This document shows positions 17,706 through 58,087 of a stretch of DNA of 64,000 bases, one piece after another. The notes under the pieces are model-generated. The model worked only from the letters and a program-made list of their open reading frames with translations. It was not told the origin of the DNA and made no database searches. Made by a program: the position numbers and the translations under genes. The DNA comes from Gaiellaceae bacterium (GTDB lineage: Bacteria > Actinomycetota > Thermoleophilia > Gaiellales > Gaiellaceae): positions 1,192 through 65,191 of the forward strand of contig DASSVO010000038.1 in assembly GCA_035706005.1 (NCBI GenBank). Reading direction: 5' to 3'. Positions within the stretch are counted from its first letter, which is position 1; each line of letters starts with the position of its first letter.

Positions 17706-18719
17706 CTACGGCTCGAGCACGACGCCGGCGCCTTCCTCCACCACACCCACCCGGGCGAGGAAGAGGCCCGCGCGCCCGAACTCCGCCTCGAGCGAAAGAG
17801 CCTTCTCGGCCGGCAGCGTCACGAGCAACCCGCCCGCGGTCTGGGCGTCGTAGGCGAGTGCGAGCAACTCGTCCGGCACGCCGTCGCTCGCCACGTGGGC
17901 GCCTGCGAAGTCGCGGTTCCGGGGATCGCCGCCGGTGCGGACGCCGTCACGCGCAGCCTCCACCGCTCCTTCGAGGGCCGGCAGCGCGGAGGCACGGAGC
18001 CGGATACGAACGCCGCTCCGTTCCGCCGTCTCGTGCGCGTGGCCGAGCAGCCCGAAGCCGGTGACGTCGGTCACCGCGTGCGGCGAGAAGGACCGCAGGA
18101 TCTCGGCCGCGCGATCGTTGAGCGTCGTCATCCAGCGCGCCGCCTCCGCAAGATCCCCCTTCGTCGCCAGCACGAGCCCGGTGCCGAGCGGCTTGGTCAG
18201 GAAGACGGCGTCTCCGGGCCGGGCGCCGCTCTTGACCCACACGCCGTCCGGATGCACCGTGCCGACCACCGCGAGGCCGTACTTCGGTTCGACGTCGCGA
18301 ATCGTGTGGCCGCCGGCGAGGATCGCACCTGCGGCCCGCACGGCCTCGTCCGCCCCCCTGAAGACCGCCGAGACGAGGTCGGTCGCGAGCTCCTCCGGAA
18401 AGGCCGCGATCGAGAGCGCGAGCAGCGGCGTCCCGCCCATTGCGAAGACGTCGTTGAGCGCGTTCGTCGCGGCGATCCGGCCGAACAGCGCGGGATCGTC
18501 GACGAGAGGCGGGAAGAAGTCCACGGTGAAGACGAGCGCGCGCTCGGCGTCGAGCCGGTAGACGGCGGCGTCGTCGGCGGGATCGAGGCCGACGAGGAGG
18601 TCCTCCGCCTCCGCCGGGACGAAGCCTTTCAGCAGCTCCTCGAGCCGCGCGGCGGAGTACTTCGCCGCACATCCTCCGCCGACGGTGAGGCTCGTCAGTC
18701 CGGCCGCTTCGGTCTCCAC
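17706..18719 (-). CDS. selD: Selenide, water dikinase (Cys-type)
   Basis: GTG 18719 is in frame. N-terminal LTSLTVGGGCAAKYS has Cys at the Sec/Cys position. Also DPALFGRIAATNALNDVFAMGG and TDVTGFGLLGHA. A longer start would overlap the divergent SDR gene. Confidence 0.9.
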   Translation of the reverse strand: METEAAGLTSLTVGGGCAAKYSAARLEELLKGFVPAEAEDLLVGLDPADDAAVYRLDAERALVFTVDFFPPLVDDPALFGRIAATNALNDVFAMGGTPLLALSIAAFPEELATDLVSAVFRGADEAVRAAGAILAGGHTIRDVEPKYGLAVVGTVHPDGVWVKSGARPGDAVFLTKPLGTGLVLATKGDLAEAARWMTTLNDRAAEILRSFSPHAVTDVTGFGLLGHAHETAERSGVRIRLRASALPALEGAVEAARDGVRTGGDPRNRDFAGAHVASDGVPDELLALAYDAQTAGGLLVTLPAEKALSLEAEFGRAGLFLARVGVVEEGAGVVLEP

Positions 18720-18738
18720 GCCGTTTACTGTAGGCCGA

Positions 18739-19434
18739 ATGGCTCGGGCTGCACTCGTCACCGGCGGCTCGTCGGGCATCGGCCTCGCGATTGCACGGAT
18801 GCTCCGGGACGAAGGCTTCGACCTCACCCTCGTCTCGCGGACGCCCGAGAAGGTCGAAGCCACGGCCGCCGAGCTCGGCGCCGCAGCCGTCGCTGCGAAC
18901 GTCGCCGAGGCGGAGGACTGCGAGCGAATCGTCGCGGAGCACCGCGACCGCTACGGCCGCCTCGACGTGCTCGTCAACTCGGCCGGAGTCGGTGTCGGCG
19001 GCCGGGTCGAGGAGCTACCCGTGAAGCACCTCGACCTCCAGCTCGACGTCAACCTGCGCGGGCTCTTCCTCGTCACGCAGGCGGCGATCCCGCTCCTGCG
19101 GGAGTCCCGCGGATGGATCGTCAACCTCGCCTCGATCTCGGGCACCCTGCCGACCCCATGGCTCGCAACCTACGGCGCCACGAAGGCGGCCGTGATCGCG
19201 CTCACCCGGTCGCTCAACGAGGAGCTCGACGGCGACGGCGTCCGGGCCATCGCGCTCTGTCCCGGCTTCGTCGACACGGCGATGGCGCAGTGGTCGGGAA
19301 TCGAGCCGAGCGAGATGATCCGGCCCGAGGACTGCGCGGAGGTGGTGCGCATGTGTCTCCGGCTCAGCCCGACGGCGCGGATTCCGTCTGTCGTCGTCGA
19401 GCGGATGGGCTCCCGCAACGGGGACGTCCACTGA
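18739..19434 (+). CDS. SDR family oxidoreductase
   Basis: ATG 18739 (MARAALVTGGSSGIGLA). Contains the YGATKAAV catalytic motif. Confidence 0.85.
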   Translation: MARAALVTGGSSGIGLAIARMLRDEGFDLTLVSRTPEKVEATAAELGAAAVAANVAEAEDCERIVAEHRDRYGRLDVLVNSAGVGVGGRVEELPVKHLDLQLDVNLRGLFLVTQAAIPLLRESRGWIVNLASISGTLPTPWLATYGATKAAVIALTRSLNEELDGDGVRAIALCPGFVDTAMAQWSGIEPSEMIRPEDCAEVVRMCLRLSPTARIPSVVVERMGSRNGDVH

Positions 19435-29756: not shown

Positions 29757-30920
29757 ATGACCGCCGAGATCCTCGACCTCGAAGGCGTGCGCGCACGCTT
29801 CCCGGCGCTCGCGTCGGGTGTCGCGTTCCTCGACGGACCAGGAGGCACGCAGTGCCCCCTGACCGTGATCGACGCGATCGCCGCCTACCTGCGCGACTCG
29901 AATGCCAACCTCGGTGGAGCGTTCGCGGCCAGCCGCCGCAGCGACGAGCTCGTCGAGCGGGTGCACGAGACAGCCGCAGGTCTCCTCGGGTGCAGGCCCG
30001 AGGAGACGATCTTCGGCCAGAACATGTCGACGCTGAACTTCGCGCTGACCCGCTGCCTGGGCCGGACGCTTTCCGCAGGAGACGAGATCCTCCTCACCCG
30101 TCTCGACCACGACGGCAACGTCGCGCCGTGGCTCGAGCTTGCCGCCGATCTCGACCTGCGGGTCGACTTCGTCGAGATCCGCGAGGACACCACTCTCGAC
30201 CTCGACGACCTCGAGCGGAAGCTGACCGAGCGCACTCGCGCCGTCGCGTTTCCGCTCGCCTCCAACGCCTTCGGCACCGTGCCGGATGCCGCACGCGTCG
30301 TCGAGCTCGCACATGCCGCGGGAGCGCTCGCGTGGGCGGACGCCGTCCACTACGCCCCGCACCGGCCGATCGACGTCGCAGCCCTCGGCGTCGACGTCCT
30401 CCTCTGCTCGCCGTACAAGTTCTTCGGCCCGCACCTCGGCCTCGCCTTCGGACGCGAGGAGCTGCTCCGCGCGTGGCGGCCGTACAAGGTGCGGCCGGCG
30501 GCCGACGAGCCGGTCGGCCACCGGTTCGAGACCGGGACGCTCGCGCACGAGCTCCTGGCGGGTTTCGTCGCGGCGGTCGACTACCTCGCGGAGCTCGGCT
30601 GGAGCGCGATCGAGTCGCACGAGAGGGAACTCGGCGAGCGCTTCCTCGCCGGACTGCCGGATCGCTGCACGCTCTACGGGCTCGCGACGATGGAGGGACG
30701 AGTGCCGACGTTCGCCTTCCGGGTCGACGGCGTACCGCCGCGCGAGGTGTCCGCGCGGCTGGCCGCACGCGACATCGCAGTCTGGGACGGCGACTACTAC
30801 GCCGTCGAGGGAATGGAACGGCTCGGCCTCCAGCCCGACGGCGCAGTCCGGGCGGGCTTCGTCCACTACAACACGTTCGACGAGGTCGACCGGCTCCTCG
30901 ACGCGCTGACGGACCTGTAG
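29757..30920 (+). CDS. Class V aminotransferase, cysteine desulfurase-like protein
   Basis: 387 aa: FPALASGVAFLDGPGGTQ..., SNAFGTV, CSPYKFFGPH. Confidence 0.8.
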   Translation: MTAEILDLEGVRARFPALASGVAFLDGPGGTQCPLTVIDAIAAYLRDSNANLGGAFAASRRSDELVERVHETAAGLLGCRPEETIFGQNMSTLNFALTRCLGRTLSAGDEILLTRLDHDGNVAPWLELAADLDLRVDFVEIREDTTLDLDDLERKLTERTRAVAFPLASNAFGTVPDAARVVELAHAAGALAWADAVHYAPHRPIDVAALGVDVLLCSPYKFFGPHLGLAFGREELLRAWRPYKVRPAADEPVGHRFETGTLAHELLAGFVAAVDYLAELGWSAIESHERELGERFLAGLPDRCTLYGLATMEGRVPTFAFRVDGVPPREVSARLAARDIAVWDGDYYAVEGMERLGLQPDGAVRAGFVHYNTFDEVDRLLDALTDL

Positions 30921-33485: not shown

Positions 33486-35465
33486 CTAGGACTCCGCCTC
33501 CTGCGCCTTCTCGTCGGCCGCCCGCTTCGAGATCTCGTCGACCACGGTCGGATCGGCCAGCGTCGTCGTGTCGCCGAGCTGGCGGTCGTTCGCGACGTCC
33601 CGCAGCAGACGGCGCATGATCTTGCCGCTGCGGGTCTTCGGCAGCTCGGGCGTGAAGACGATGTTCGCGGGCTTCGCGATCGGCCCGATCTTCTGCGCGA
33701 CGTGGTTGCGCAGCTCCTCGAGCTTCTCGACGCTGCCCTCGCCGCCGCCCTTCAGCGTCACATAGGCGACGATCGCCTCGCCCGTCACCGAGTCGGCGCG
33801 CGAGCACACCGCCGCCTCGGCGACCTCGAGATGGTCGACGAGCGCCGACTCGACCTCGATCGTCGAGATGCGGTGCCCCGAGACGTTCATCACGTCGTCG
33901 ATCCGGCCGAGGAGCCAGTAGTCGCCGTCCTGGTCGATCCGGGCGCCGTCCCCGGCGAGGTAGATGTCGTCGTACTTCGACCAGTACGTGTCGCGGTAGC
34001 GCTGGTCATCGCCGAAGATGCCTCGCAGCATCGCCGGCCACGGACGCTTGAGGACGAGGTAGCCGCCCCCACCGGGACCGACCTCGTTGCCCTGCTCGTC
34101 GTACACCGCAGGCACGACGCCGGGGAACGGCTGGGTCGCCGAGCCCGGCTTGAGCGTCGTGATCCCGGGCAGCGGCGTGATCAGGATCATCCCGGTCTCC
34201 GTCTGCCACCAGGTGTCGACGACCGGAGTCCGGTCGCCGCCGATGTTCTCGCGGTACCAGATCCACGCCTCAGGGTTGATCGGCTCGCCGACGGAGCCGA
34301 GCAGGCGCAGGGACGACAGGTCGTGCTTCTGCGCGTGCTCCGGCCCCCACTTCATGTGCGAGCGGATGGCGGTCGGCGCCGTGTACAGGATCGTCACCTT
34401 GTACTTCTCGACGATCGACCACCAGCGGTCCTTGTCGGGGAAGTCGGGCGTCCCCTCGTAAAGGACCGACGTCGTCCGGTTGCACAGTGGGCCATACACG
34501 ATGTAGCTGTGGCCGGTGATCCAGCCGATGTCCGCAGCGCACCAGTAGACGTCCTCGTCCCGCTTCAGGTCGAAGATGTAGTGGTGCGTCGACGCCGTGC
34601 CGATGAGGTAGCCGGCCGTCGTGTGGATGATCCCCTTCGGCTTCGCGGTCGTACCGCTCGTGTACATGAGGAAGAGCAGGTCCTCGCTGTCCATCGGCTC
34701 GCACGGACACGACTCCGGATCGTCCGACACGTCGCTCTCGAGGTCGTGCCAGTAGTGGTCACGGCCCTCCTTCATCGGCACCTCACCGCCCGTGCGGCGG
34801 AGGACGACGCAGTGCTTCACGCCGGGTGCTGCGGCCATCGCCTCGTCAGCGACTGCCTTCAGCCCGATCTTCGAGCCGCGACGCCAGGCCTCGTCCTGCG
34901 TGATGACGACCTCGCACTCCATGTCGTTCATCCGGCCCGATAGCGAGTCGGCCGAGAACCCGCCGAAGACGACCGTGTGCGGCGCTCCGATCCGCGTGCA
35001 CGCGAGCATGGCCACCGGCAGCTCCGGGACCATGCCCATGTAGATCCCGACCGGCGTCCCCTTCTTCACTCCGAGCTTCTTCAGCCCGTTCGCGAAGCGG
35101 ACGACGTCCTTCTGGAGATCCGCGTACGTGATCGTGCGCGTCTCCCCTTCGGGCTCGCCCTCCCAGTGGTACGCGACGACGCCCCCGTCGCCCGCCTCGA
35201 CATGCCGGTCGACACAGTTGAAGCAGACGTTCAGCTTGCCGCCGAGGTACCACTTCGCGTACGGCGGCTCCCACTGGTAGAGCTCGGTGAACGGCTCGAA
35301 CCACGCGACCCGATCGCGGCCCTCCCGCTCCCAGAACTCCTCGAACGGGACGTCGTAGATGTCGGGCTGCGCATTCGCCTTGGCCGCGAAGTCCTCGGGC
35401 GGCGGATACGTCCGCTCCTCGAGGAACATCGTGTCGATCGCGTGGTGGCTCGCCTCTGTTGCCAA
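33486..35465 (-). CDS. acs: Acetyl-CoA synthetase
   Basis: 659 aa: YTSGTTAKPKG, WWQTETG, PKTRSGKIMRRLLR. Confidence 0.95.
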   Translation of the reverse strand: MATEASHHAIDTMFLEERTYPPPEDFAAKANAQPDIYDVPFEEFWEREGRDRVAWFEPFTELYQWEPPYAKWYLGGKLNVCFNCVDRHVEAGDGGVVAYHWEGEPEGETRTITYADLQKDVVRFANGLKKLGVKKGTPVGIYMGMVPELPVAMLACTRIGAPHTVVFGGFSADSLSGRMNDMECEVVITQDEAWRRGSKIGLKAVADEAMAAAPGVKHCVVLRRTGGEVPMKEGRDHYWHDLESDVSDDPESCPCEPMDSEDLLFLMYTSGTTAKPKGIIHTTAGYLIGTASTHHYIFDLKRDEDVYWCAADIGWITGHSYIVYGPLCNRTTSVLYEGTPDFPDKDRWWSIVEKYKVTILYTAPTAIRSHMKWGPEHAQKHDLSSLRLLGSVGEPINPEAWIWYRENIGGDRTPVVDTWWQTETGMILITPLPGITTLKPGSATQPFPGVVPAVYDEQGNEVGPGGGGYLVLKRPWPAMLRGIFGDDQRYRDTYWSKYDDIYLAGDGARIDQDGDYWLLGRIDDVMNVSGHRISTIEVESALVDHLEVAEAAVCSRADSVTGEAIVAYVTLKGGGEGSVEKLEELRNHVAQKIGPIAKPANIVFTPELPKTRSGKIMRRLLRDVANDRQLGDTTTLADPTVVDEISKRAADEKAQEAES

Positions 35466-35498: not shown

Positions 35499-36167
35499 CT
35501 AGGCCGTCGCCGCCACGCGAGATTCGGTTACGAACGGCCTCCCGACCGGCAGAAGCACTCGGCCTGCGACGCCGTTCCAGACGCCCGCGGCCGAGGTGTA
35601 CCAGGCGACAGCCGCCGTGACGACGCCCGCCCATCCGCCCGCGTGCAGCCACCAGTTGTTCGTGGTGGGACTGATGTGCGAACCGTTGAAGAATCCAATC
35701 ACGAGCAGGATCTCGGTGATCTGCAGCGTGAGAAAGACCCCGAATACGGCCGCGTTCACGCGCATGCTGCCGATCAGCATGTAGAGGTTGAAGACGGCGA
35801 ACGCGAACAGGAACCAGGCGACCGAGTTGTCGATGTTGTGCGGGCCCACGCCGGCGAACCAGTTCTTCGTGACGACGCCGAGGGTGATGAATAGGCCGAG
35901 GCCCATCCAGAAGCCTCCGTACGTCGAGAACGCGGTCGCGCCGAACACGTTCCGGTTGCGGAACTCCCACATTCCGGCGCAGAACTGAGCGAGGCCGCCG
36001 TAGAAGATCGCGGGGCCGACCCAGATCAGGTCGGGAATGAACGACGCGTTGTGCCCGCTGAGCAGGAACGTCGTCAGTGCGAATCCCGCGAGACCCAGCG
36101 GCGCGGGGTCGGCGGCCGGTGTGCCCTCAACCAACTGCACCGGCCGGTCGGAAGACAGTGCGCTCAT
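35499..36167 (-). CDS. GPR1/FUN34/YaaH (SatP/AceTr) acetate channel
   Basis: 222 aa: DPAPLGLAGFALTTF, YGGFW and six TM segments. Lies 33 nt upstream of acs on the same strand. Confidence 0.85.
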   Translation of the reverse strand: MSALSSDRPVQLVEGTPAADPAPLGLAGFALTTFLLSGHNASFIPDLIWVGPAIFYGGLAQFCAGMWEFRNRNVFGATAFSTYGGFWMGLGLFITLGVVTKNWFAGVGPHNIDNSVAWFLFAFAVFNLYMLIGSMRVNAAVFGVFLTLQITEILLVIGFFNGSHISPTTNNWWLHAGGWAGVVTAAVAWYTSAAGVWNGVAGRVLLPVGRPFVTESRVAATA

Positions 36168-37485: not shown

Positions 37486-38913
37486 ATGGCGGCCATCGGC
37501 GAAAGAGACGATCCGGCCTTCCCGGTCGGAGCGGTGTGCCGGATCGACTCGCGCGCGCCGTGGCGGCAGGTCGCGGAGATCCCGGTCGGCCTCGACCCGG
37601 AGGGAATCGCCGTCGACGTCGCGCGGCGGCGCGCGTTCGTCGCATGCTCGCGCAGCGACTTCGTCTCGGTCGTCGACCTCGACTCGCACGAGGTCGTCGC
37701 GGAGATCGCGACCGGCGCCGAGCCGATCGACATCGGACTCGACGAGCAGACAGGCCGCGTCTTCACTGCCGACGCACACTCCGACCAGGTGACGATCATC
37801 GACTCGGCGACACTCGAGGTGGAGACCGCCCTGCCGGTCGGCGGCTATCCATCCGGCCTCACGCACGTCCCCGAGTACCGTCGGCTCTACGTCGGCAACT
37901 CGCTCGGGTCGACGATGAGCGTGATCGACCTCGACACGCTCGAGACCGTCGCCACCGTCGACGCCGAGCCCGGCGCCGGCGCGATCGGCGTCGACTCGAC
38001 ACGGCGCCTCGTCGTCTGCGTCAACTTCGTCGCCGCCTCCGCGAACTTCTACGACGTCGACTCCTTCGAGGAGATCGCGCGGCTTGAGCTCGGCACCGGC
38101 ACGTGCGCGATCGGGATCGTCCCCGAGCGCGGCGAGGCCTTCATCGTCAACTCGATCGCCGGCACCGTCTCACGCGTCGACCTCGAATCGATCGAGGTCG
38201 TGGAGGAGATCCGCACCGGCCAGGCACCGGTCGGACTCACGGTCGCGCCGGCGCACGACCGGATCTACGTCACGAACCGGGGCGCCGGCACCGTGAGCGT
38301 GCTCGGCGTCGCCGATCGGTGCGAGTGGTCGCAGATCCCGGTCGGCAACGGCCCCGGCGGAGTCGTCGTCGACCCGCACGACGGCCGCATCCTCGTCGCC
38401 AATGCGGGCAGCCAGACGATGTCGATCGTCGAGGACCTGCTCGCCGCGAAGCCGCCGGCCCCGGTCGTCGAGGAGTCGAGCCCGTGGCTCGGGAACCGGC
38501 TGCCGGCGTTCGCGCTCGAGGACTACTGGACGGGCGAGCGGCGCACCAATCACGACTGGGCGGAGAAGAAGTACATCCTCAACTTCTTCGCCTCGTGGTG
38601 AGGACCGTGCAACGCGGAGGCGCCGTTCCTCGAGGAGCTGCGCGTTCGCGAGGAGGCCCGGTCGGGCCTCGAGGTCGTGCTCGTCGACATCTGGGAAGGG
38701 ACGGAGCCTCGCCCCGAGGTTGAGCGGTTCTGCGACATGTGGGGCATCAAGGGGCCGATCCTCCTCGACCCGGGTGGCGAGCTCGCCACGACGCTCGGCG
38801 TGCGCGGCGTGCCGACGAACGTCGTCGTCGACTCGGACGGGACGATCCGCGCCTTCGGGGCAGCGCGGCTCGATGAGCTCGAGCAAGCGATCGACAGCCT
38901 CTACGGCCGGTAG
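37486..38913 (+). CDS. Predicted selenoprotein: YVTN beta-propeller repeats fused to a TlpA/ResA-like redoxin with W-U-G-P-C (Sec at 38599-38601)
   Basis: Track ORF 37417..38601 ends at ...YILNFFASW-TGA. The same frame continues GPCNAEAPFLEEL...RGVPTNVVVDSDGTIRAF to TAG 38913. Track ORF 38677..38913 is in frame. The TGA sits exactly at the first Cys of the redoxin CxxC. Confidence 0.75.
38609..38649 (+). promoter_or_regulatory. Candidate SECIS hairpin
   Basis: Lower stem GCAACGCG (38609-38616) pairs with CGCGTT(C)GC (38641-38649). Upper stem GAGG/CCTC closes the loop CGCCGUU at 38621-38627, 20-26 nt after the UGA. The structure is imperfect, and an alternative 7-bp hairpin lies at 38652-38669. 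Confidence 0.35.
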
Positions 38914-38918
38914 GGCGG

Positions 38919-39560
38919 ATGGCGCTGCTGCGCGCCGAAGAAGAGACCAGGGTCCGGGAATGGTTCGCCGAACTCGAGCGGCCGGTGGAGCTCCTCGTGG
39001 CGGTCGGTCCCGAGGAGACGCCGCTTCCCGGTGCGGGTGACGTCGACTTCGGCGCGGAGATGATGCGCGTGTGCGAGGGGCTGGCGGAGCTCGGCGAGGC
39101 CGTGACCTGCCGTCGGGAGGAGGAGCCGGACGGCTTCCCCCGCTTCCCGGCCGTCTCCATCCGTCCCGAGGGGCGCGATTCCGGAGTCCGGTACGACGGG
39201 CTGCCGTGGGGTTACGAGCTCGGCTCGCTCGTCGGCGCGATCGTCGAGGCCGGCCGCGCCGAGCCCTCGCTGCGTCCCGAGTCGCTCGCGGCCTTGGGCG
39301 AGCTCGACCGCGACCTCGCGCTCGACGTCTTCGTCACGCCGACTTGACCGCACTGCCCGCCGGCCGTGCTGCTGGCGTTTCGGTGCGGCTTCGCTTCGGA
39401 GCGGGTGGCGGCGACCGCGATCGAGGCCAACGAGTTCCCGCAGCTCGCGCAGGAGATGCAAGTCTGGGCGGTGCCGCGCATCGTCGTCGACGGCGTACCG
39501 CAGTGGGACGGGGCGGTGCCCGAGCCCGAGTTCCTCCGCCGGATCCTCTCGGCCGCCTAG
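38919..39560 (+). CDS. Predicted selenoprotein: PDO/AhpF-N-terminal-like glutaredoxin-type protein with T-U-P-H-C (Sec at 39345-39347)
   Basis: Track ORF 38919..39347 ends at ...LDVFVTPT-TGA. The same frame continues PHCPPAVLLAF...EANEFPQLAQEMQVWAVPRIVVDG to TAG 39560. Track ORF 39366..39560 is in frame. This matches the vfvTptCPyCp...efp.la..y.V..VP pattern with U at the first Cys. Confidence 0.75.
39348..39388 (+). promoter_or_regulatory. Candidate SECIS hairpin
   Basis: Outer stem CCGCAC (39348-39353) / GTGCGG (39383-39388). Inner 7-bp stem CGCCGGC/GCTGGCG closes the loop CGUGCU at 39365-39370, 18-23 nt after the UGA. Confidence 0.45.
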
Positions 39561-42858: not shown

Positions 42859-43295
42859 GCGAGCTCCGCCTCACCGTCAACGGCGAGCACCACGTCCTCG
42901 ACGCGCCGGTCGGGGCGAGCCTCGCCCACGTCCTGCGCGAGGAGCTCGGCCTGACGGGGACGAAGGTCGCCTGCAACGAGGGGCACTGTGGCGCTTGCAC
43001 CGTTCAGGTCGACGGCGTGCCGCGGCTCTCGTGCATCACCCTCGCGCACGCGGTCGAGGGAGAGGTGACGACGATCGAGGGTCTGCGGGAGCATCCGCTC
43101 GTCGAGGCGTTCGTCCGCGCCGACGCGGTCCAGTGCGGCTACTGCACGCCCGGACAGGTGGTGTCGGCGGCCGCACTCGTCGCGGCGAACCCGCAGCCGA
43201 CGCGCGAGGAGATCCGGCACGCGATGGCCGGGAACATCTGCCGCTGCGGCACGTATCCGAAGATCGAGGAGGCGATTCTCAGTTGGCAAGGCTGA
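42855..43295 (+). CDS. (2Fe-2S)-binding small subunit of a molybdenum hydroxylase (CoxS/XdhC-type)
   Basis: CNEGHCGACTV and QCGYCTPGQ...CRCGTY motifs. ATG 42855 is in frame. Confidence 0.9.
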   Translation: MSELRLTVNGEHHVLDAPVGASLAHVLREELGLTGTKVACNEGHCGACTVQVDGVPRLSCITLAHAVEGEVTTIEGLREHPLVEAFVRADAVQCGYCTPGQVVSAAALVAANPQPTREEIRHAMAGNICRCGTYPKIEEAILSWQG

Positions 43296-45553
43296 TCCGC
43301 ACCGAGAAGGAGGTCGAAGGGCGCTTCGAGGAGGTGTGGATCGTCGTCGAGGAGGATCCGCTCGAGCAGTGGCCCGCGGGGCCGCTCACCGTCGTGGGCC
43401 GTCCGGCGCCCCGCAAGGACGGGGCCGAGCGCGTGCGGGGCGAGGCGCGCTACACGGCCGACATCCGGCTGCCCGGGATGCTCCACGCCGCAGTCCTCCG
43501 CTCCCCGCACGCCCATGCCCGCGTGCGGCGGATCGACCTCGCGCCCGCGCTGGCGCTACCGGGCGTGCGAGCGGCGATCGGCCCCGGCGAAGCGCACGGG
43601 CTCGAGGCAGAGGCGGGATTCTCCGGCGCGCCCGTTGCCGCGGTCGCCGCCGACACCTTCGACCAGGCGCGGGCGGGGGTCGAGGCGATCGAGGTCGAGT
43701 GGGAGGAGCTCGAGGTCGTGCTCGATCCCGACGAGGCCGTCCGGCGGGGGCTCCTCAACGACGAGCCGCGCCGCACCGAGCGAGGCGACGTCGACCGGGC
43801 GCTCGCCGAGGCCGACGTCGTGGTGGAGGCGACCTACCGGACGCAGACCGTCCTTCACAACTCGCTCGAGACGCACCAGGCCGTCTGCGAATGGCAGGGC
43901 GACACGCTCCACGTCTACATCTCGACACAGTTCATCTGGGGCGTCCGTCAGGCGGTCGCCGAGACCCTCGGCCTGCCCGAGGACAAGGTGCGCGTCGTGT
44001 GCGAGTTCATGGGCGGCGGTTTCGGCTCGAAGAACGGGCCCGACGAGTACACGTTCGTGGCGGCCGAGCTGGCGAGGCGGACGGGCCGCCCGGTCCGCTG
44101 CGCGCTCACGCGACGCGAGGAGCACACCTCCGCCGGGAACCGCAACGCGACGATCCAGCGCCTTCGCGCCGGGGCACGCAGCGACGGGACGATCGTCGCC
44201 CTCGACGGCGAGTTCACGAACTCCCTCGGCTGGTCGGGCTGGAACGCCTCCACCGAGGGCCCAATGAAGATGCTCTACGACTGCGAGAACGTCCGCACGG
44301 TCACCTACGGCACCAAGCTCAACACGCCGCCGATGAAGGCGTTCCGGGCGCCCGGCTTCGTCGAGGGGACGTTCGGCCTCGAGTGCCTGATCGACGAGCT
44401 CGCCGCCAAGCTCGACGTCGACCCGCTCGAGCTCCGGCGTCGCAACTACGCGAGCTCGAACGAGGGGACGCCGTTCTCCTCGAAGAACCTCGAGGACTGC
44501 TACCGCCGCGCGGAGCCGCACTGGGAGCGGCGCCACGAGGTGCATGCACGATCCGATGCCGTCTGGAAACGCGGGGTCGGGATGGCGAGCCAGATCTGGT
44601 ACGGCGGCGGCGGACCTCCCTCCTACGCTTGGGTGCGGCTCGGCTCCGACGGACGCGCGACCGTGATCACGGCGATGCAGGACATCGGCACCGGCACGCG
44701 CACCGCAATGGCGCAGATCGCAGCCGAGGAGCTCGGCCTGCCGATCGAGCACGTCGAGGTCGTGCTCGGAGACTCGGCCCGCGGGCCGTACGCCTCGGTC
44801 TCCGCGGGCTCCTCGACCCTGCCGTCGATGGGGCCGGCGGTGCGCGCAGCTGCGGCAGACGCGAAGCGGCAGGTGATCGAGATCGCCGCTCAGCGCTACC
44901 ACCTCGAGGAACGCGTGCTCGACATCCGCGACGGCGCGGTGCTCTCCGCGGACGGCAATCTCTCTGCACCGGTCCACGAAGTCGTAGGCCTGCTCGAGGA
45001 GGCGCAGATCCTCGGAAAGGGGGCTCGCGGCCCCAACCCGACCGGGATGAGCGTCCTGACGTTCGGCGTCCACGTCGTGGAGGTCGCGGTCGATGTCGAG
45101 ACCGGCGAGGTGCGCGTCGAGCGCGTCGCCGCGATCCACGACGTCGGCCGGATCGTCAACCCGCTCGGCGCCTCGAGCCAGGTCGAGGGAGGCGTCATCC
45201 AGGGGATCGGCCATACGCTCTCGGAAGACCGGCTGCTCGACCCGGAGACCGGGCGCATCCTCACCACCTCGCTCGACGCGTACCGGATGCCCACCATCGC
45301 CGACGTGCCGCCGGAGATCGTCTGCGAGTTCGTCGACCGGCCCGACGAGCACCTCACGAACCTCGGCTCGAAGGGGCTTGGTGAGCCGCCGATCGTGCCG
45401 ATCGCAGCCGCGATCGCGAACGCGATCCGCGACGCGACCGGCGCGGACGTGCACGAGCTGCCGATCTCCCGCGAGGAGATGCTCCGCGCGCTGCGCGAGG
45501 CCGAGACCCGGCAACGCGAGAAGGAGAAGCGTGGAGCTCCTGCGGCCGTCTAG
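43283..45553 (+). CDS. Molybdopterin-binding large subunit (xanthine dehydrogenase/aldehyde oxidase family)
   Basis: TTG 43283 lies about 10 nt after GAGGAGG. Contains GGGFGSKNG and a typical a/b-hammerhead N-terminus. Confidence 0.9.
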   Translation: MARLIRTEKEVEGRFEEVWIVVEEDPLEQWPAGPLTVVGRPAPRKDGAERVRGEARYTADIRLPGMLHAAVLRSPHAHARVRRIDLAPALALPGVRAAIGPGEAHGLEAEAGFSGAPVAAVAADTFDQARAGVEAIEVEWEELEVVLDPDEAVRRGLLNDEPRRTERGDVDRALAEADVVVEATYRTQTVLHNSLETHQAVCEWQGDTLHVYISTQFIWGVRQAVAETLGLPEDKVRVVCEFMGGGFGSKNGPDEYTFVAAELARRTGRPVRCALTRREEHTSAGNRNATIQRLRAGARSDGTIVALDGEFTNSLGWSGWNASTEGPMKMLYDCENVRTVTYGTKLNTPPMKAFRAPGFVEGTFGLECLIDELAAKLDVDPLELRRRNYASSNEGTPFSSKNLEDCYRRAEPHWERRHEVHARSDAVWKRGVGMASQIWYGGGGPPSYAWVRLGSDGRATVITAMQDIGTGTRTAMAQIAAEELGLPIEHVEVVLGDSARGPYASVSAGSSTLPSMGPAVRAAAADAKRQVIEIAAQRYHLEERVLDIRDGAVLSADGNLSAPVHEVVGLLEEAQILGKGARGPNPTGMSVLTFGVHVVEVAVDVETGEVRVERVAAIHDVGRIVNPLGASSQVEGGVIQGIGHTLSEDRLLDPETGRILTTSLDAYRMPTIADVPPEIVCEFVDRPDEHLTNLGSKGLGEPPIVPIAAAIANAIRDATGADVHELPISREEMLRALREAETRQREKEKRGAPAAV

Positions 45554-46355
45554 CGTCGAGCAGCTCGACGGCGGCGTGATCGTCCACGGGGGGACGGAGG
45601 TCGTGCCGCTCCTACGTGAGGGCTTGCTCGATGCGGAGCGACTCGTCGACGTGCGCGGCGTCGTGCCCCGCGGCATCCGGGAGGGAGTGATCGGCGCAGG
45701 AACGATGCTCGCGGAGATCGAGGTCGAGCCCGCGATCCCGGAGGCGCTGCGCGAGGCATGCCGGCTCGCGGCTTCGCCCCAGCTCCGGAGCATGGGCTCG
45801 CTCGGCGGCAATCTCCTGCAGGCGACGCGCTGCTGGTACTGGCGGCTCGGTTACCCGTGCCGTCTCCACGGCGGAGAGCGCTGTCACGCGCGCGACGGCG
45901 AGCACCGCGAGCACGCGATCTTCGCGAACGGCTTCTGCGCCTCCGCGCACCCCTCCGACGTGGCGGCCGCGCTCGTCGCACTCGGCGCTCGGCTGCGGAC
46001 GGACCGCCGCGAGTTCGCAGTCGAGGAGCTCTACCGGCTTCCGGACGAGGCAGACCGGAGCACGACGACGCTCGAGGGCGGCGAGCTCCTCCTCGAGGTC
46101 GAGCTGCCGCCGGTGGAGGCGAGCGCGTACCTCAAGGCGATGGACCGCAAGCGATGGTCGTTCCCGCAGGTCGGCGTGGCCGCAGCGCGTCACGCCGACG
46201 GCTCGACGCGGATCGCGCTCGCCGGCGTGGCGCCGATCCCGTGGCGGATCGGGGGCCTCGAGGAGCTCGAGCAGGCGACCCCGCTCCCCCGAACGGAGTG
46301 GAAGGTGCCGCTCGCGCAGGCGCTCGTGCGCCGCGCGCTCGCAGCGCTGGCGTGA
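45531..46355 (+). CDS. FAD-binding medium subunit (CoxM-like)
   Basis: GTG 45531 is in frame. Contains GGTEVVPLL and SMGSLGGNL. Confidence 0.85.
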   Translation: MELLRPSSVEQLDGGVIVHGGTEVVPLLREGLLDAERLVDVRGVVPRGIREGVIGAGTMLAEIEVEPAIPEALREACRLAASPQLRSMGSLGGNLLQATRCWYWRLGYPCRLHGGERCHARDGEHREHAIFANGFCASAHPSDVAAALVALGARLRTDRREFAVEELYRLPDEADRSTTTLEGGELLLEVELPPVEASAYLKAMDRKRWSFPQVGVAAARHADGSTRIALAGVAPIPWRIGGLEELEQATPLPRTEWKVPLAQALVRRALAALA

Positions 46356-46837
46356 TCGCGGCGGTGGTGCTCGCCGCGGGCGCTTCGTCCCGCTACGGGA
46401 CGGAACCGCCGAAGCAGGTCGAGCTGCTCCCGAGGGTCCTGGCTGCGCTGCGGGAGAGCTGCGTCGACGAGATCGTCGTCGTGAGCGGGGCGCACCCACT
46501 CCCCGTCGAAAGTGTCTCCTGCCCCGACTGGGAGCGAGGCCCCGGCGCCTCGCTTCGCTGCGGCCTCGCCGCTCTCCCCGCGGACGCGGAAGCGGCGCTG
46601 GTCGTCCTCGCCGACGGTCCCGACCTCGACGCCCGCGCGGTCGACCGGGTCGTCGCGGAGTGGCGGGCGAACGACGGCGACGCGGTCGCCGCGACGTACG
46701 GAGGCGTACGCCTGCATCCGGTCCTGCTCGCCCGTTCGGTCTGGGACGACGTGCCCGACGAGGGCGCGAAGTCGCTGCCCGCGAGGCTCGTCGCCTGCGA
46801 CGACCTGACCCCGCCCGGCGACGTCGACGTCGCATAG
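46352..46837 (+). CDS. MobA-like nucleotidyltransferase (MocA-type molybdenum cofactor cytidylyltransferase)
   Basis: GTG 46352 forms a GTGA overlap. Contains AAVVLAAGASSRYG and VLADGP. Confidence 0.7.
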   Translation: MIAAVVLAAGASSRYGTEPPKQVELLPRVLAALRESCVDEIVVVSGAHPLPVESVSCPDWERGPGASLRCGLAALPADAEAALVVLADGPDLDARAVDRVVAEWRANDGDAVAATYGGVRLHPVLLARSVWDDVPDEGAKSLPARLVACDDLTPPGDVDVA

Positions 46838-53887: not shown

Positions 53888-54655
53888 TTACTGGCCCTGC
53901 TTGATCCCAGGCTCCGCCCACGGAAGCTCGACTGCCTCGAGCGGTTGCCTGCCCGGGACGTTCGCCGCCTTCTTGTACTCGAACAGCGGCAGGATGGTGC
54001 GCTTCGTGACCGAGGTGAGGCATAGCGCCGTCACCACGTAGGCCGCGAGGCCTGCCGAGATTACGAACAGGACTCCCCCGGCGCCGAGCCAGCCACTGCC
54101 GATTCCGCCCATGAACCAGCCGGCGCACGAGAGGGCCGAGCCGGCCGCGAGCGTCCACAGCACTGCCGAGACGGCGAGATTGTGGCCCATCGCGGCCACT
54201 GCCGGGATGAACGTGATGTAGGCGAGACCGAAGAACCACAGCCCGAGAGCCGTGTTCGACACGCCGGGTGCGGGCGCCGGCAGCTTGCCGACGAGGATGA
54301 AGATGTTCAGGAGCCCGAAGGCGATCCAGAACGCTCCCCACGCACCGTGTGCGAGCGTCGCGACGACGTCGCGTGCCTTGTAGGACCACATTCCGGCGGC
54401 GAACTGCGCGATGCCGCCGAAGGTCAAGGCGAACAAGGCGATGACGGGCATGTCGGACCATGCCCCCCACCATCCGGCCTGAATGACTGCCACCATGAAC
54501 GTCGCCACCGAGAAACCCGCGAGGCCGAGCGCGGACGGTGCCGCAATCGGCTGGAGGAACACGCGCGGGCGGGCGAAGCCGTCGCGCCACGCCTCCTCCT
54601 CGCGGAGCGCGACGCCGGCAGAAGCGTGTTGTCTGCGCTCGTCGATCGTGCTCAT
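53888..54655 (-). CDS. Divergent GPR1/FUN34/YaaH-family channel (second paralogue)
   Basis: ATG 54655 was placed by codon count. Contains APSALGLAGFSVATF and FGGIAQFAAGMW with six TM segments. It has a C-terminal extension absent from the 35499 paralogue. Confidence 0.7.
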   Translation of the reverse strand: MSTIDERRQHASAGVALREEEAWRDGFARPRVFLQPIAAPSALGLAGFSVATFMVAVIQAGWWGAWSDMPVIALFALTFGGIAQFAAGMWSYKARDVVATLAHGAWGAFWIAFGLLNIFILVGKLPAPAPGVSNTALGLWFFGLAYITFIPAVAAMGHNLAVSAVLWTLAAGSALSCAGWFMGGIGSGWLGAGGVLFVISAGLAAYVVTALCLTSVTKRTILPLFEYKKAANVPGRQPLEAVELPWAEPGIKQGQ

Positions 54656-54758
54656 AAAGCAACGACCCCTTTCTGCGTCGTGTCCTTTAGTTCGTATTGC
54701 GTTGCTCCTTTCGCCTGCCCGCTTGCGGCGGGGGAAAACCTCAAGAATCCCCGCGACT

Positions 54759-54772
54759 GCGATGTACATCGC
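54759..54772. promoter_or_regulatory. Perfect 14-bp palindrome GCGATGTACATCGC
   Basis: Lies in the 159-bp divergent region between the channel/mrp operon and the fdh operon. Confidence 0.35.
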
Positions 54773-54814
54773 ACCCCGTTTACACGCTCGCGTGGATCGG
54801 AAGAAACAACAGCA

Positions 54815-57800
54815 ATGGCGCTCGCGAAGCTCCTCGACTCGTGGCCTGCGCTGCGGCAGCTGCGGGAGGGCGATCCCCTCGGCCTGGGCAAGTCGGTGCA
54901 ATCGCCGCGCTCCCAGCGCCTCGTGCCGCGCCTCGACGAGGCCGAGCACGTCGTCCACTCGATCTGTCCCTACTGCGCGGTCGGCTGCGGCCAGCTCGTC
55001 TACGTCAAGGACGGCGACGTCACCCACATCGAGGGCGATGCGGCGAGCCCGATCTCACGTGGCCGGCTCTGCCCGAAGGGACAGGCGTCGAAGAGCTTCG
55101 TCCAGAGCCCGCTGCGCGAGTACAAGGTCAAGTACCGGCGGCCCTACGGCACCGCGTGGGAGGAGCTGTCGCTCGACGACGCGATGGACATGATCGCCGA
55201 GCGGATCGTCAGGACGCGCGCCGACACGTGGCGCAAGCGGACGGAGGGCGGCGCACCCGCGAACCGCACGATGGCCATCGGCAATCTCGGCGGCGCGACG
55301 CTCGACAACGAGGAGAACTACCTCATCAAGAAGCTGATGACGGCGCTCGGCATCGTGCAGGTCGAGAACCAGGCCCGCATATGACACAGCTCCACGGTGC
55401 CCAGTCTGGGCACCTCGTTCGGACGAGGCGGCGCGACGACCTTCCAGCAGGACCTGCAGAACGCGGACTGCATCGTGATCATGGGCTCGAACATGGCCGA
55501 GAACCACCCGGTCGGATTCCAGTGGGTGATGGAGGCCAGGGAGCGCGGCGCGAAGGTGATCCACGTCGATCCGCGCTTCACGCGCACGAGCGCGATGGCG
55601 ACGAAGCACGTCGGCATCCGCGCCGGTAGCGACATCGCCTTCCTCGGCGGCATCGCCAACTACCTCCTGCAGAACGACCTCTACTTCCGGGAGTACGTCG
55701 AGAAGTACACGAACGCGCCCGTCATCATCGACGAGCGCTTCGTCGGCCCCGAGGATGCGGACGGACTGTTCTCGGGCTGGGATCCGGAGTCCGGGCGCTA
55801 CGACATCGAGTCGTGGCGCTACGAAGGGATGGAGGTTCACGGTGCAGCCGGACAGCGCGGCGAAGGCTTCGAGCCGAGCGGCGAGCAGTCCGGCCACGGG
55901 GCCGCCGGCGGCGGGCTGCATCACGGCGAGCCGCCGGCCGAGGATCCCGAGCTCAACCATCCGCGCTGCGTCTTCCAGATCCTGAAGCGCCACTACCAGC
56001 GCTACACGCCCGAGTTCGTGGCCGAGACCTGCGGCTGCTCGGTGGAGGACTTCGTCGAGGTCTGCGAGACCCTGGCGGCGAACTCCGGCAGGGAGCGGAC
56101 GAGCGCCTTCTGCTACGCGGTCGGCTGGACGCAGCACACCGTCGGCGTGCAGATGATCCGCTCGGCCGCCGTCGTGCAGCAGCTGCTCGGCAACATCGGC
56201 CGTCCCGGCGGCGGGATCATGGCGCTCCGCGGCCACGCGTCGATCCAGGGCTCGACCGACATCCCGACGCTGTTCAACATCCTGCCCGGCTATCTGCCGA
56301 TGCCGCACACGCTGAGCTACCACACCCTCGACAACTTCGTCGACTCGAACACGTCGCCGACGGGCTGGTGGGGGAAGTTCGAGTCGTACTGGGTCAGCCT
56401 GATGAAGGCCTACTTCGGCGAGCACGCGACCGCCGAGAACGACTGGCTGTTTGACCACATGCCGCGCGTCGACAGCGACAACTCCGCCTACTTCACCGTC
56501 CAGCAGATGCTCGAGGGAAACGTGAAGGGCTACATCATCGCCGGCGAGAACCCGGCCGTCGGCCACGCGAACGGCAGGGCCCACCGGCTCGGGCTCGCGA
56601 AGCTCGACTGGCTCGTCGTGCGCGACGTCGTCGAGATCGAGTCGGCGTCCTTCTGGTACGACAGCCCCGAGGTCGAGTCGGGCGAGCTGAAGCCCGAGGA
56701 GATCCCGACCGAGATCTTCTTCCTCCCGGCCGCCGCGCACACGGAGAAGGACGGCTCCTTCACGAACACGCAACGCCTGCTGCAGTGGCACTGGCAGGCG
56801 GTCGAGCCGAAGGAGGACTGCCGTTCGGAGCTCTGGTTCTACTTCCACCTCGGCCGCCGGATCAAGCAGAGGCTCGAGGACTCCGAGGAGGAGCGCGACA
56901 CGCTCATCAAGGCCCTGCGGTGGGAGTACCCGACCCACTCGGCGATCCAGGAGCCCGACGCCGAGGCCGTCCTCCAGGAGGTCAACGGCTGGGAGATCGA
57001 GAGCGGCAAGTTCCTCAGCGGGTATCCGGAGTTGAAGGACGACGGCTCCACCCTGTGCGGCTGCTGGATCTACTGCGGCTGCTTCAAGGACGGGATCAAC
57101 CAGACGGCGCGCAAGAAGCCGCACTGGGAGCAGGAGAGCTACGTCGCGCCCGAGTGGGCCTGGGCCTGGCCGGCCAACAGGCGGCTGATCTACAACCGCG
57201 CCTCGGCGGATCCCGACGGGAACCCGTGGTCGGAGCGGAAGCGCTACGTGTGGTGGGACGAGAGCGAGGGCAAGTGGACCGGCCTCGACGTCCCGGACTT
57301 CAAGGAGGACAAGGAGCCGCACTACGTGCCGCCCGACGACGCGAAGGCCGAGGACGCGATCGCCGGCGCTCACCCGTTCGTCATGCAGGCGGACGGCCGC
57401 TCGTGGCTGTACGTCCCGCAGGGTCTCGAGGACGGACCGCTCCCGACGCACTACGAGCCGCACGAGTCGCCGTTCGACAACCCGCTGTACTCGCAGCGGG
57501 CGAACCCGCGCCGCCAGCAGAACAAGGACCTCGCCGAGGATCCGTACAACCCGGTCGCCGACGAGCCGGGCGCCGAGGTCTATCCGTACGTCGTGACCAC
57601 CTACCGCTTGACCGAGCACCACACCGCCGGCGGAATGACGCGCTCCGTCCCCTACCTCGCGGAGCTCCAGCCGGCGATGTTCTGCGAGGTGCATCCCGAC
57701 CTCGCGCGGGAGGTCGGGCTCGAGCACGGCGGCTGGGCGACGATCTACACGTCCCGGTCGGCGATCGAGGCGCGCGTGCTCGTCACCGAGCGCATGCGGC

Positions 57801-58087
57801 CCCTCCGCAGGAAGGACGGCCGCAGCGTCCACCAGGTGGGGCTGCCGTACCACTGGGGCAAGCGCGGCCTCGTCACCGGCGACTCCGCAAACGACCTCGC
57901 GCACATGGCGCTCGACCCGAACGTCCACATCCAGGAGGTCAAGGCGTTCACCTGCGGGATCCGGCCGGGCCGCCGGCCGCGCGGCCCGGAGCTGCCCCGC
58001 TTCGTCGCCGAGCTGCGCGACCAGGCGCATTCGCGCCGCGAGCAGGAGCCTCGCGTCGAGCCCGAGGAAGTGAGGAAAACGACGTGA
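54815..58087 (+). CDS. Formate dehydrogenase alpha subunit (FdnG/FdoG-type), selenocysteine at 55382-55384
   Basis: Track ORFs 54182..55384 and 55397..58087 share one frame. The junction reads VENQARI-U-HSSTVPSLGTSFGRGG, compared with QARVUHGPTV in E. coli FdnG. The N-terminal 4Fe-4S motif is CPYCAVGCG. The ATG at 54815 is in frame, and there is no RRxF Tat motif. Confidence 0.9.
55396..55414 (+). promoter_or_regulatory. SECIS-like hairpin of the fdh alpha gene
   Basis: GGTGCCC-AGTCT-GGGCACC forms a perfect 7-bp stem. The loop lies 19-23 nt after the UGA. The GUCU-containing loop recalls the E. coli fdhF SECIS. Confidence 0.55.

Follow-up and report, generated by a model that had tools for sequence, protein, structure and literature searches.

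Within a 64,000-nucleotide stretch of DNA from a Gaiellaceae bacterium (assembly GCA_035706005.1, contig DASSVO010000038.1, positions 1,192 to 65,191 of the forward strand; hereafter, the window), the gene at 37486-38913 appears to encode a single protein in which a beta-propeller is joined to a TlpA/ResA-type redoxin domain and selenocysteine (Sec) is specified by an in-frame TGA at the nucleophilic position of the active site. We put the probability that this interval is one Sec-decoded propeller-redoxin gene at about 0.85, and are slightly more confident still that it represents a genuine, widely conserved, and unannotated selenoprotein gene. The two features on which the argument turns are as follows.

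37486-38913, forward strand: complete coding sequence of the predicted propeller-redoxin selenoprotein, 475 residues with Sec as residue 372, stop codon TAG at 38911-38913
38599-38601, forward strand: in-frame TGA, putative Sec codon at the nucleophilic Cys position of WCxxC, based on the ResA alignment and on TGA in 88 of 88 orthologous loci

Direct translation shows that the frame opened by the ATG at 37486 runs for 371 codons to ...AEKKYILNFFASW, reaches the TGA, and resumes as GPCNAEAPFLEEL... before ending at the TAG, with the post-TGA frame continuing as GPCNAEAPFLEELRVREEARSGLEVV... in the same gene. The start at 37486 is backed by orthologues with a tblastn match from residue 1 and by protein P0036. 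The first-pass annotation, which was made from the sequence alone, had proposed that the TGA interrupts one frame spanning 37486-38913 and that the open reading frame (ORF) listed at 38677-38913 belongs to it; translation confirmed these coordinates, and the listed ORF does share the frame of the propeller-redoxin gene, beginning 75 nt past the TGA. A window-wide scan found just three TGAs flanked on both sides by coding-like G+C content at third codon positions (GC3), located at 38599, 39345, and 55382, and GC3 past the first of these is 0.91. With three such TGAs in the window and conservation of this one in every orthologous locus, the in-frame TGA of the propeller-redoxin gene is far beyond chance.

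For the conservation data, a collection with a single genome for each GTDB species was scanned, which gave 271 places encoding relatives, the best 80 of which were fetched and read; these, the window itself, and seven distant loci fetched singly make up the 88 loci. The GTDB loci are mostly from Gaiellaceae/Thermoleophilia, with some from Acidimicrobiales, and the distant loci are those of Streptomyces sp. OZ186885.1, Streptomyces coelicoflavus GCA_042734225.1, and five metagenomic or metagenome-assembled genome contigs. Together, they span about 45-92% protein identity and derive from independent assemblies produced by differing projects and sequencing technologies. The Sec-site codon is TGA in all 88, and TAA, TAG, TGC, and TGT are found in none; in each locus, GPC comes next after the TGA, and the frame stays conserved for about 100 codons up to a real stop. 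The further TGA-bearing orthologues to which the first-pass annotation had looked for support therefore exist throughout the set, and the TGC or TGT that it had considered as a possible true reading of 38599-38601 occurs in no locus. The nucleotide diversity of 55 orthologues without gaps is 0.077, 0.051, and 0.277 at codon positions 1, 2, and 3 after the TGA and 0.091, 0.060, and 0.266 before it, so that diversity at position 3 is far above that at positions 1 and 2 on both sides. As the pattern is the same as that upstream, it argues that the post-TGA frame is translated and equally constrained.

These comparative data refute the idea of a pseudogene, or of an assembly or sequencing error in one genome, to which we give almost no credence. 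Some ENA long-read assemblies of relatives do carry frameshifted chimeric calls (P0001, P0036, P0039-P0043), which would be in keeping with such an error, but the same TGA is present in 88 independent assemblies. The ENA-derived proteins P0001, P0036, P0039-P0041, and P0043 match parts of the query with 80-90% identity and represent frameshifted or chimeric calls from error-prone assemblies that could mislead automated family building.

A second alternative is that the TGA is a true stop, leaving a stand-alone propeller that ends in ...FASW, followed by a small redoxin fragment with its own start or by an untranslated remnant. This is how gene callers annotate the locus everywhere. A protein search with the joined sequence recovered about 35 orthologues at 45-53% identity, each ending in ...[FV]FASW, and a profile search raises the database family to 51 proteins, all stopping at ...FASW; the family proteins scoring above 450 bits in that search are 360-433 residues long, and the redoxin Pfam domain is found in none of them. 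In the sources, these proteins go by no other names than 'hypothetical protein', 'YVTN family beta-propeller protein', or 'YncE family protein'. Several records also contain called downstream ORFs of 71-113 aa, and a GTG is present at 38677 in the window. Against a true stop stand the TGA in 88 of 88 loci, never replaced by TAA or TAG, and selection past the TGA that is the same as that before it. Termination there would also cut the active site between the W and GPC, and the first in-frame start past the TGA is not conserved among orthologues, with GPCNAEAPFLEEL, the peptide in which the domain is most conserved, encoded by the 25 codons preceding it. The earlier claim that the downstream ORF alone would lack both an earlier start and the active site thus holds. 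Whether orthologues terminate after FFASW and carry a separate downstream gene had been raised as a way in which the fusion could fail; the protein records do end there, but the DNA always reads TGA, then in-frame GPC and a full redoxin domain. As the database proteins end at FASW without a redoxin domain, gene callers evidently truncate all members of the family, and we regard a true stop as very improbable.

The assignment of the C-terminal domain, and thus of the residue replaced by the TGA, is supported by several features.

38491-38910, forward strand: TlpA/ResA-type redoxin (thioredoxin-fold) domain, residues 336-475 (PF08534, E=1.6e-17; phmmer to ResA 4nmu, E=2.7e-16)
38608-38610, forward strand: resolving Cys of the U-G-P-C motif, Cys375 (translation, orthologues, and ResA alignment)
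38806-38817, forward strand: GVPT, cis-proline loop of the thioredoxin fold (ResA alignment)

When the TGA of the joined protein is read as Cys, the Pfam Redoxin model PF08534 matches residues 336-456 (64.1 bits against a cutoff of 26.6), and the AhpC-TSA model PF00578 matches with 54.5 bits against a cutoff of 26 (E=1.5e-14). The TGA aligns with the N-terminal active-site Cys of solved ResA structures, the CxxCxxExP motif and the cis-Pro loop are kept, and both W-U-G-P-C-N-A-E-A-P and G-V-P-T align to ResA, with U substituting for the first Cys. The proposal that the TGA falls on the nucleophilic first Cys of a TlpA/ResA/redoxin domain is therefore borne out by both Pfam and the alignment to ResA. 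The NCBIfam cutoffs for the individual families are not reached by the joined protein (ResA, 66 against 170 bits; DsbE, 47.7 against 123; TlpA, 34.9 against 230).

Cys-containing relatives point in the same direction at the level of the domain. The nearest Cys-type relatives of the redoxin domain, P0061, P0070, P0161, and P0167, share the motif NFFA[HS]WC[GP]PCN; across the Sec site, P0161 reads NFFASWCGPCNSEAP, i.e., has Cys, and P0061 and P0070 read NFFAHWCGPCNAEAP. The N-terminus of these four proteins is not a propeller but a different secreted domain of roughly 330 residues, for which a Pfam match is absent from the precomputed list, and they constitute a separate uncharacterised fusion family. 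A Cys form of the fusion was not found by a library-wide HMMER search with the 103 post-TGA residues, in which the nearest matches were all short post-TGA ORF fragments, nor by a profile search of 5.8 billion proteins, and a metagenome DNA-pattern scan for FA[ST]WCGPCN returned at least 80 loci with a propeller in none among the matches listed. The search for Cys-containing homologues suggested earlier was thus successful for the domain, where ResA and the four proteins above place Cys at the TGA, and unsuccessful for the fusion as a whole. Among the matches listed, all members of the propeller-redoxin family seem to use Sec.

Two genes of the window that the first-pass annotation had already singled out indicate that the host uses Sec. 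The selD gene (17709-18779, reverse strand) was identified by tblastn and NCBIfam (TIGR00476, 330 bits), and as the encoded SelD is of the Cys type (GGGCAAK), it is not one of the selenoproteins. The fdhA gene (54815-58087, forward strand) matches the actinobacterial formate dehydrogenase model NF041513 and carries a TGA at 55382-55384 within the Sec motif QARI-U-HSSTV; its selenocysteine insertion sequence (SECIS), a hairpin at 55396-55414 that reads GGUGCCCA-GUC-UGGGCACC and comes after an 11-nt spacer, fits the bacterial SECIS (bSECIS) model. For the propeller-redoxin gene, two hairpins follow the TGA.

38613-38650, forward strand: hairpin H1, beginning 11 nt past the UGA, about 15 bp with two 1x1 internal loops and the apical loop UCGA; candidate SECIS or spacer hairpin (folds and pair counts)
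38653-38670, forward strand: hairpin H2, GAGGCCC-GGUC-GGGCCUC; candidate SelB-binding apical hairpin (folds, CCGGU conservation, and compensatory changes)

Both H1 and H2 appear in single-sequence folds of every lineage. In 80 sequences, 89.8% of the cells at the proposed H1/H2 pairs can pair, compared with 34-53% when the partners are slid, and compensatory changes are present. In a diverse set of 26 sequences, H1 is 84.9% paired and H2 65-74%, the latter depending on the register because its loop is 3, 4, or 5 nt long according to lineage. The CCGGU of H2 is invariant in all sequences examined, and CCGGUC is found in all except one (L083, with GGUU, which also has a Ser-to-Phe change there); the bases are conserved even though they lie in codons for Arg and Ser, each of which can be encoded in six ways. 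In windows that start at codons 374-376, synonymous codon entropy is down to 0.28-0.32, compared with a gene-wide value of 0.66 +/- 0.20. Hairpins of at least 7 bp with a G(G)U[CU] loop number only seven in 128 kb of window sequence, H2 and the FdhA SECIS being among them, and the G(G)UC loop type of H2 is the same as that of the FdhA SECIS. The case for H1 and H2 is built on pair counts and on folds of single sequences, both of which lean in favour of the structure proposed. It may be that H2 binds SelB and that H1 serves as a structured spacer; a folded H1 would leave 11 + 2 + 7 = 20 nt between the UGA and the H2 loop, near the FdhA geometry of 19 nt. Translation would then pass the UGA at 38599-38601 as SelB and tRNA-Sec insert Sec, directed by the RNA structure in the next ~70 nt. 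Small bSECIS-compliant hairpins, such as GCGG-AGGCG-CCGU with a spacing of 16, were also considered; these occur in 69 of 86 sequences, are lost in distant lineages, and were not adopted.

Several observations weigh against this interpretation. The first concerns the RNA structure, as neither hairpin alone fits the consensus bSECIS model, which calls for a G in the first two loop positions and a loop 16-37 nt from the UGA (PMC13188914). By these rules, H1 has a suitable spacing (28 nt), but its UCGA loop has no G as its first or second nucleotide, whereas H2 has a suitable loop, stem, and energy, but its loop is 58 nt from the UGA. RNAalifold on the 26 diverse sequences gives only a weak consensus of -4.8 kcal/mol that does not match H1/H2, probably due to register shifts and a 3-nt indel in the codon-based alignment. 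Rfam yields no match at gathering thresholds in the whole window and chance-level matches only around the TGAs. Beyond the RNA, the lack of any Cys-form orthologue of the whole fusion in the searches described above is unusual for selenoprotein families. The genes selA, selB, and that for tRNA-Sec (selC) are not in the 64-kb window, where a tRNA scan found none, and the propeller-redoxin gene has no conserved neighbour outside one Gaiellaceae clade, so that the partnership with a downstream selenoprotein gene described below is not general.

The departure of the downstream RNA from the canonical bSECIS model also lends some weight to the alternative that near-cognate or suppressor decoding of the UGA inserts one of the standard amino acids (Cys, Trp, or Arg). 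However, the UGA lies exactly at the redox-active Cys position typical of Sec/Cys pairs, the genome encodes selD and a Sec-containing FdhA, and H2 resembles the FdhA SECIS hairpin. If Cys were acceptable at this site, TGC or TGT would be expected, yet neither is found in the 88 loci, while TGC does occur once in the neighbouring PDO-like gene (L066). This alternative is accordingly quite unlikely in our view, if a little less so than a true stop, and we infer that Sec rather than another readthrough amino acid is inserted at 38599-38601.

The N-terminal part of the selenoprotein contains the following features.

37561-38436, forward strand: seven-bladed YVTN/YncE-type beta-propeller, residues 26-317, with 28 beta-strands (AlphaFold2, Foldseek, TIGR02276)
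38437-38490, forward strand: Pro/Ala-rich interdomain linker, residues 318-335 (AlphaFold2, lower confidence, predicted local distance difference test [pLDDT] score of 66-81)
37537-37539, forward strand: Cys18, family-specific, Ser/Thr in non-fused YVTN homologues (sequence comparison)
37645-37647, forward strand: Cys54 (VACSR) in blade 1, in place of the canonical Asn of the YVTN motif, family-invariant (sequence comparison)
38017-38019, forward strand: Cys178 (CVNF) in blade 4, family-specific (sequence comparison)
38104-38106, forward strand: Cys207 (GPCA/GTCA) in blade 5, invariant and family-specific (sequence comparison)

An AlphaFold2 model of the N-terminal 371 residues, built with 35 sequences, has a mean pLDDT of 89.2, rising to about 97 in the blades, and its 28 strands form seven four-stranded blades. 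The best Foldseek matches to this model in the PDB are the archaeal YVTN propeller 1l0q (E=4e-21) and Escherichia coli YncE (3vgz/7seu, E=5e-20); the joined protein scores 128.7 bits against a cutoff of 27.85 with the NCBIfam YVTN repeat model TIGR02276, and Pfam also finds the YNCE propeller in it, along with marginal NHL repeat matches. Residues 1-19 are disordered in the model. The N-terminus is acidic and variable, and no hydrophobic segment, signal peptide, or membrane anchor was found there in the window protein or in 35 orthologues. The earlier description of the N-terminal part as a YVTN-type propeller lacking a signal peptide is thus confirmed in both respects. As no orthologue has a signal peptide or membrane anchor, the protein is predicted to be cytoplasmic, unlike TlpA, ResA, and CcmG.

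The four propeller cysteines, C18, C54, C178, and C207, are invariant or nearly so across the fused family and stand where YVTN repeats have canonical residues. Among 16 non-fused YVTN homologues, Cys is absent from three of the four positions, and at the position of C54, it is found in P0044 alone. The co-occurrence of these cysteines with the redoxin fusion suggests, from sequence comparison, a functional link between the two, and they might act as a redox relay, form a regulatory disulfide, or provide a site for a metal(loid).

In one Gaiellaceae clade, the propeller-redoxin gene is followed by what is probably a second selenoprotein gene.

38919-39560, forward strand: predicted PDO/AhpF-N-terminal-like selenoprotein gene, 213 residues, TPT-U-PHC, 5 nt past the propeller-redoxin stop (Thioredoxin_3, E=5e-13; TIGR02187)
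39345-39347, forward strand: second in-frame TGA (putative Sec), first Cys of CxxC in FVTPT-U-PHC-P (TGA in 38 loci, TGC in L066)
39348-39388, forward strand: hairpin directly 3' of the second TGA, with 39358-39377 reading CGCCGGC-CGUGCU-GCUGGCG (10-nt spacer; fits the consensus bSECIS rules)

The PDO-like protein matches TIGR02187 ('PDO_seleno_TRX') over positions 3-208 of the 209 in the model with 148.8 bits, below the cutoff of 185; the PDO/AhpF-N-terminal family to which it is assigned is already known. The gene lies beside the propeller-redoxin gene in 39 loci of this clade, with TGA at the Sec site in 38 of these and a Cys codon, TGC, in the other (L066), and from this arrangement, the two genes likely form a two-selenoprotein operon. 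The remainder of the neighbourhood, consisting of genes for an M24 peptidase, acetyl-CoA synthetase, YaaH, and an amidohydrolase, is specific to Gaiellaceae. In Acidimicrobiales, Streptomyces, and other lineages, the PDO-like gene is not adjacent, and the propeller-redoxin gene stands alone.

As the active site is of the ResA type, a catalytic mechanism can be proposed. With a substrate bound at the propeller, the selenolate would attack its disulfide (or sulfenate or selenenylsulfide) to give a Se-S intermediate, which Cys375 would resolve, and the oxidised U-x-x-C would then be re-reduced. The propeller, with C18, C54, C178, and C207, may itself carry a redox-active or metal(loid)-binding site that is served by the redoxin domain. 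We consider the chances of a disulfide reductase acting on a propeller-bound substrate to be about even. In the Gaiellaceae clade, the electron donor would probably be the adjacent PDO/AhpF-N-terminal-like selenoprotein (U-P-H-C), which might itself receive electrons from an enzyme of the thioredoxin reductase type. An AhpC-fold protein is reduced physiologically by the AhpF N-terminal domain, and by analogy with this pair, the two selenoproteins could plausibly constitute a Sec-to-Sec electron relay in this clade; we hold the partnership between them only tentatively, at somewhat below even odds.

An alternative role for the selenoprotein is that of a peroxidase or of a metalloid (arsenic/selenium) detoxification enzyme, in which the propeller cysteines bind the metalloid or peroxide substrate. 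The match to the AhpC/TSA hidden Markov model (E=1.5e-14) and the neighbouring AhpF-N-terminal homologue, the natural reductant of AhpC, are consistent with this role, as are the four family-specific propeller cysteines and the position of the gene directly after arsC (low-molecular-weight phosphatase type)-arsR-acr3 in Streptomyces sp. OZ186885.1 (L081, 3761-7428). However, the active site is of the TlpA/ResA type (W-C/U-x-x-C with ExP) rather than the PxxxTxxC of peroxiredoxins (Prx), and the ars neighbourhood is found in that one locus only. In S. coelicoflavus (L207), the gene lies between a transposase and an integrase with no ars genes adjacent, and as such adjacency is also absent from other lineages, it was rejected as a general clue. 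A peroxidase or detoxification role thus appears unlikely, and a thiol-disulfide activity of the propeller-redoxin selenoprotein remains the better-favoured proposal.

Compared with known systems, the redoxin domain is closest to ResA, TlpA, and CcmG (DsbE) (PDB 4nmu, 1st9, and 3gl3), which are the best sequence matches to residues 336-456 and share with it the W-C-x-x-C-x-x-E-x-P motif, the cis-Pro loop, and the domain length. These are Cys enzymes that are membrane-anchored or secreted and act in the maturation of cytochrome c or copper centres, whereas the propeller-redoxin protein has no signal peptide or anchor, contains Sec and a propeller, and scores 66 bits against the ResA cutoff of 170. 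Its propeller has the same seven-bladed fold and repeat signature over residues 26-317 as YncE and the archaeal S-layer YVTN propellers (3vgz and 1l0q), but those have no redox domain, and the four Cys replacing canonical YVTN residues are a property of the propeller-redoxin family. The WAxxUGC ResA-like selenoprotein (NF041054) resembles it in combining a ResA/TlpA-like fold with Sec; its motif, however, is U-G-C rather than FASWUGPC, its 354-residue model has another N-terminal part, and the score is 32.2 bits against a cutoff of 300.

The record of Sec-containing redoxins with UxxC, among them Prx-like, thiol-disulfide isomerase-like, and Redoxin-family proteins, goes back to 2005-2008 (PMC13188914, PMC2398784). 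The Prx-like thiol:disulfide oxidoreductase, the isomerase-like family cd02966, and Redoxin PF08534 (Table 1 of PMC13188914; PMC2398784) share with our protein a thioredoxin-fold TlpA/redoxin domain, U-x-x-C, and the same presumed chemistry, but none of these families is listed with a propeller, and the one fusion recorded joins Prx-like 3 to an unknown CxxC-bearing domain. By contrast, the redoxin here is the C-terminal quarter of 475 residues, the first 317 of which encompass a seven-bladed propeller, and the family is restricted to Actinomycetota, has no Cys form that could be found, and has downstream RNA that departs from the standard bSECIS model. The U-x-x-C redoxin chemistry is therefore not new, and the novelty is architectural.

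The nearest architectural analogues are NHLRC2 and plant SOQ1, in which a beta-propeller, thought to present the substrate, is likewise linked covalently to a TlpA-type thioredoxin (Trx)-like domain. The NHLRC2 structure has its active site facing the propeller 'cup', and in SOQ1, electrons pass from the Trx domain to an adjacent domain for the repair of a client protein (PMC6107167; bioRxiv 10.1101/2024.11.01.621559). In the protein described here, the propeller comes first and has seven YVTN rather than six NHL blades, the motif is WUGPC rather than CC(I/V)NC, Sec is used, and there is no C-terminal beta domain, so the resemblance is one of functional analogy and not of family membership or demonstrated homology. 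The propeller-redoxin architecture is absent from the 119 selenoprotein families and subfamilies compiled in May 2026 (PMC13188914), and no selenoprotein model in NCBIfam 20.0 matches the protein, the closest being NF041054. In the literature, we found no paper combining a selenoprotein with YVTN and nothing relevant for Gaiella, and the deep-Sep paper has no propeller entry. The first-pass annotation had judged Sec-containing oxidoreductases to be known and a propeller-redoxin fusion to be missing from the described families, a judgment upheld by the inventory and the NCBIfam selenoprotein models. What is new is this selenoprotein architecture, its breadth within and restriction to Actinomycetota, its apparent lack of a Cys form, and its atypical SECIS arrangement.

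These results have several implications for selenium biology. Actinomycetota are usually seen as selenoprotein-poor, with formate dehydrogenase often their only selenoprotein, while Gaiellaceae and Acidimicrobiales are abundant soil lineages and Streptomyces is cultivable. In the carrier genomes, the number of selenoproteins rises to two, or to three in one clade, and every annotation pipeline truncates the propeller-redoxin protein to a 'YVTN/YncE family protein'; correcting this annotation changes estimates of selenium use in soil. S. coelicoflavus offers a tractable case in which to explore the extent of departure from the consensus that a bacterial SECIS tolerates, and with this family, the poorly understood Trx-plus-propeller proteins NHLRC2 and SOQ1 gain a bacterial counterpart. 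That a Cys form seems to be lacking altogether argues that selenium is functionally indispensable here, a rare situation with relevance to the reasons for using Sec in the first place. A more far-reaching proposal is that the family is obligately Sec with no Cys form, that its SECIS is bipartite, with the 38-nt H1 bringing H2 to an effective distance of ~20 nt, and that the redoxin serves a new Cys-based redox or metal(loid) site in the propeller. We regard this combination as speculative and improbable as a whole; were it true, the activity would have no characterised bacterial counterpart.

Other genes in the window touch on related processes. A cysteine desulfurase-like protein is encoded at 29757-30920 on the forward strand (TIGR01976, 406 bits, above the cutoff), with weaker similarity to the selenocysteine lyase SclA; going by these matches, it could contribute to selenium or sulfur supply, with no link to the propeller-redoxin gene. 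A xanthine dehydrogenase/aldehyde oxidoreductase-type molybdenum subunit is encoded at 42995-46837 on the forward strand (all models below cutoff), together with a flavin adenine dinucleotide-binding subunit and a MobA-like nucleotidyltransferase gene, and this region also shows weak matches to selenium-dependent molybdenum hydroxylase models. The fdhA gene is followed by a gene for an NrfD-like membrane subunit at about 58134-59972. Two genes of the GPR1/FUN34/YaaH family (acetate/succinate channel) lie on the reverse strand, one at 35499-36167, adjoining the acetyl-CoA synthetase gene at 33486-35465, and the other at 53888-55027, just upstream of the formate dehydrogenase operon.

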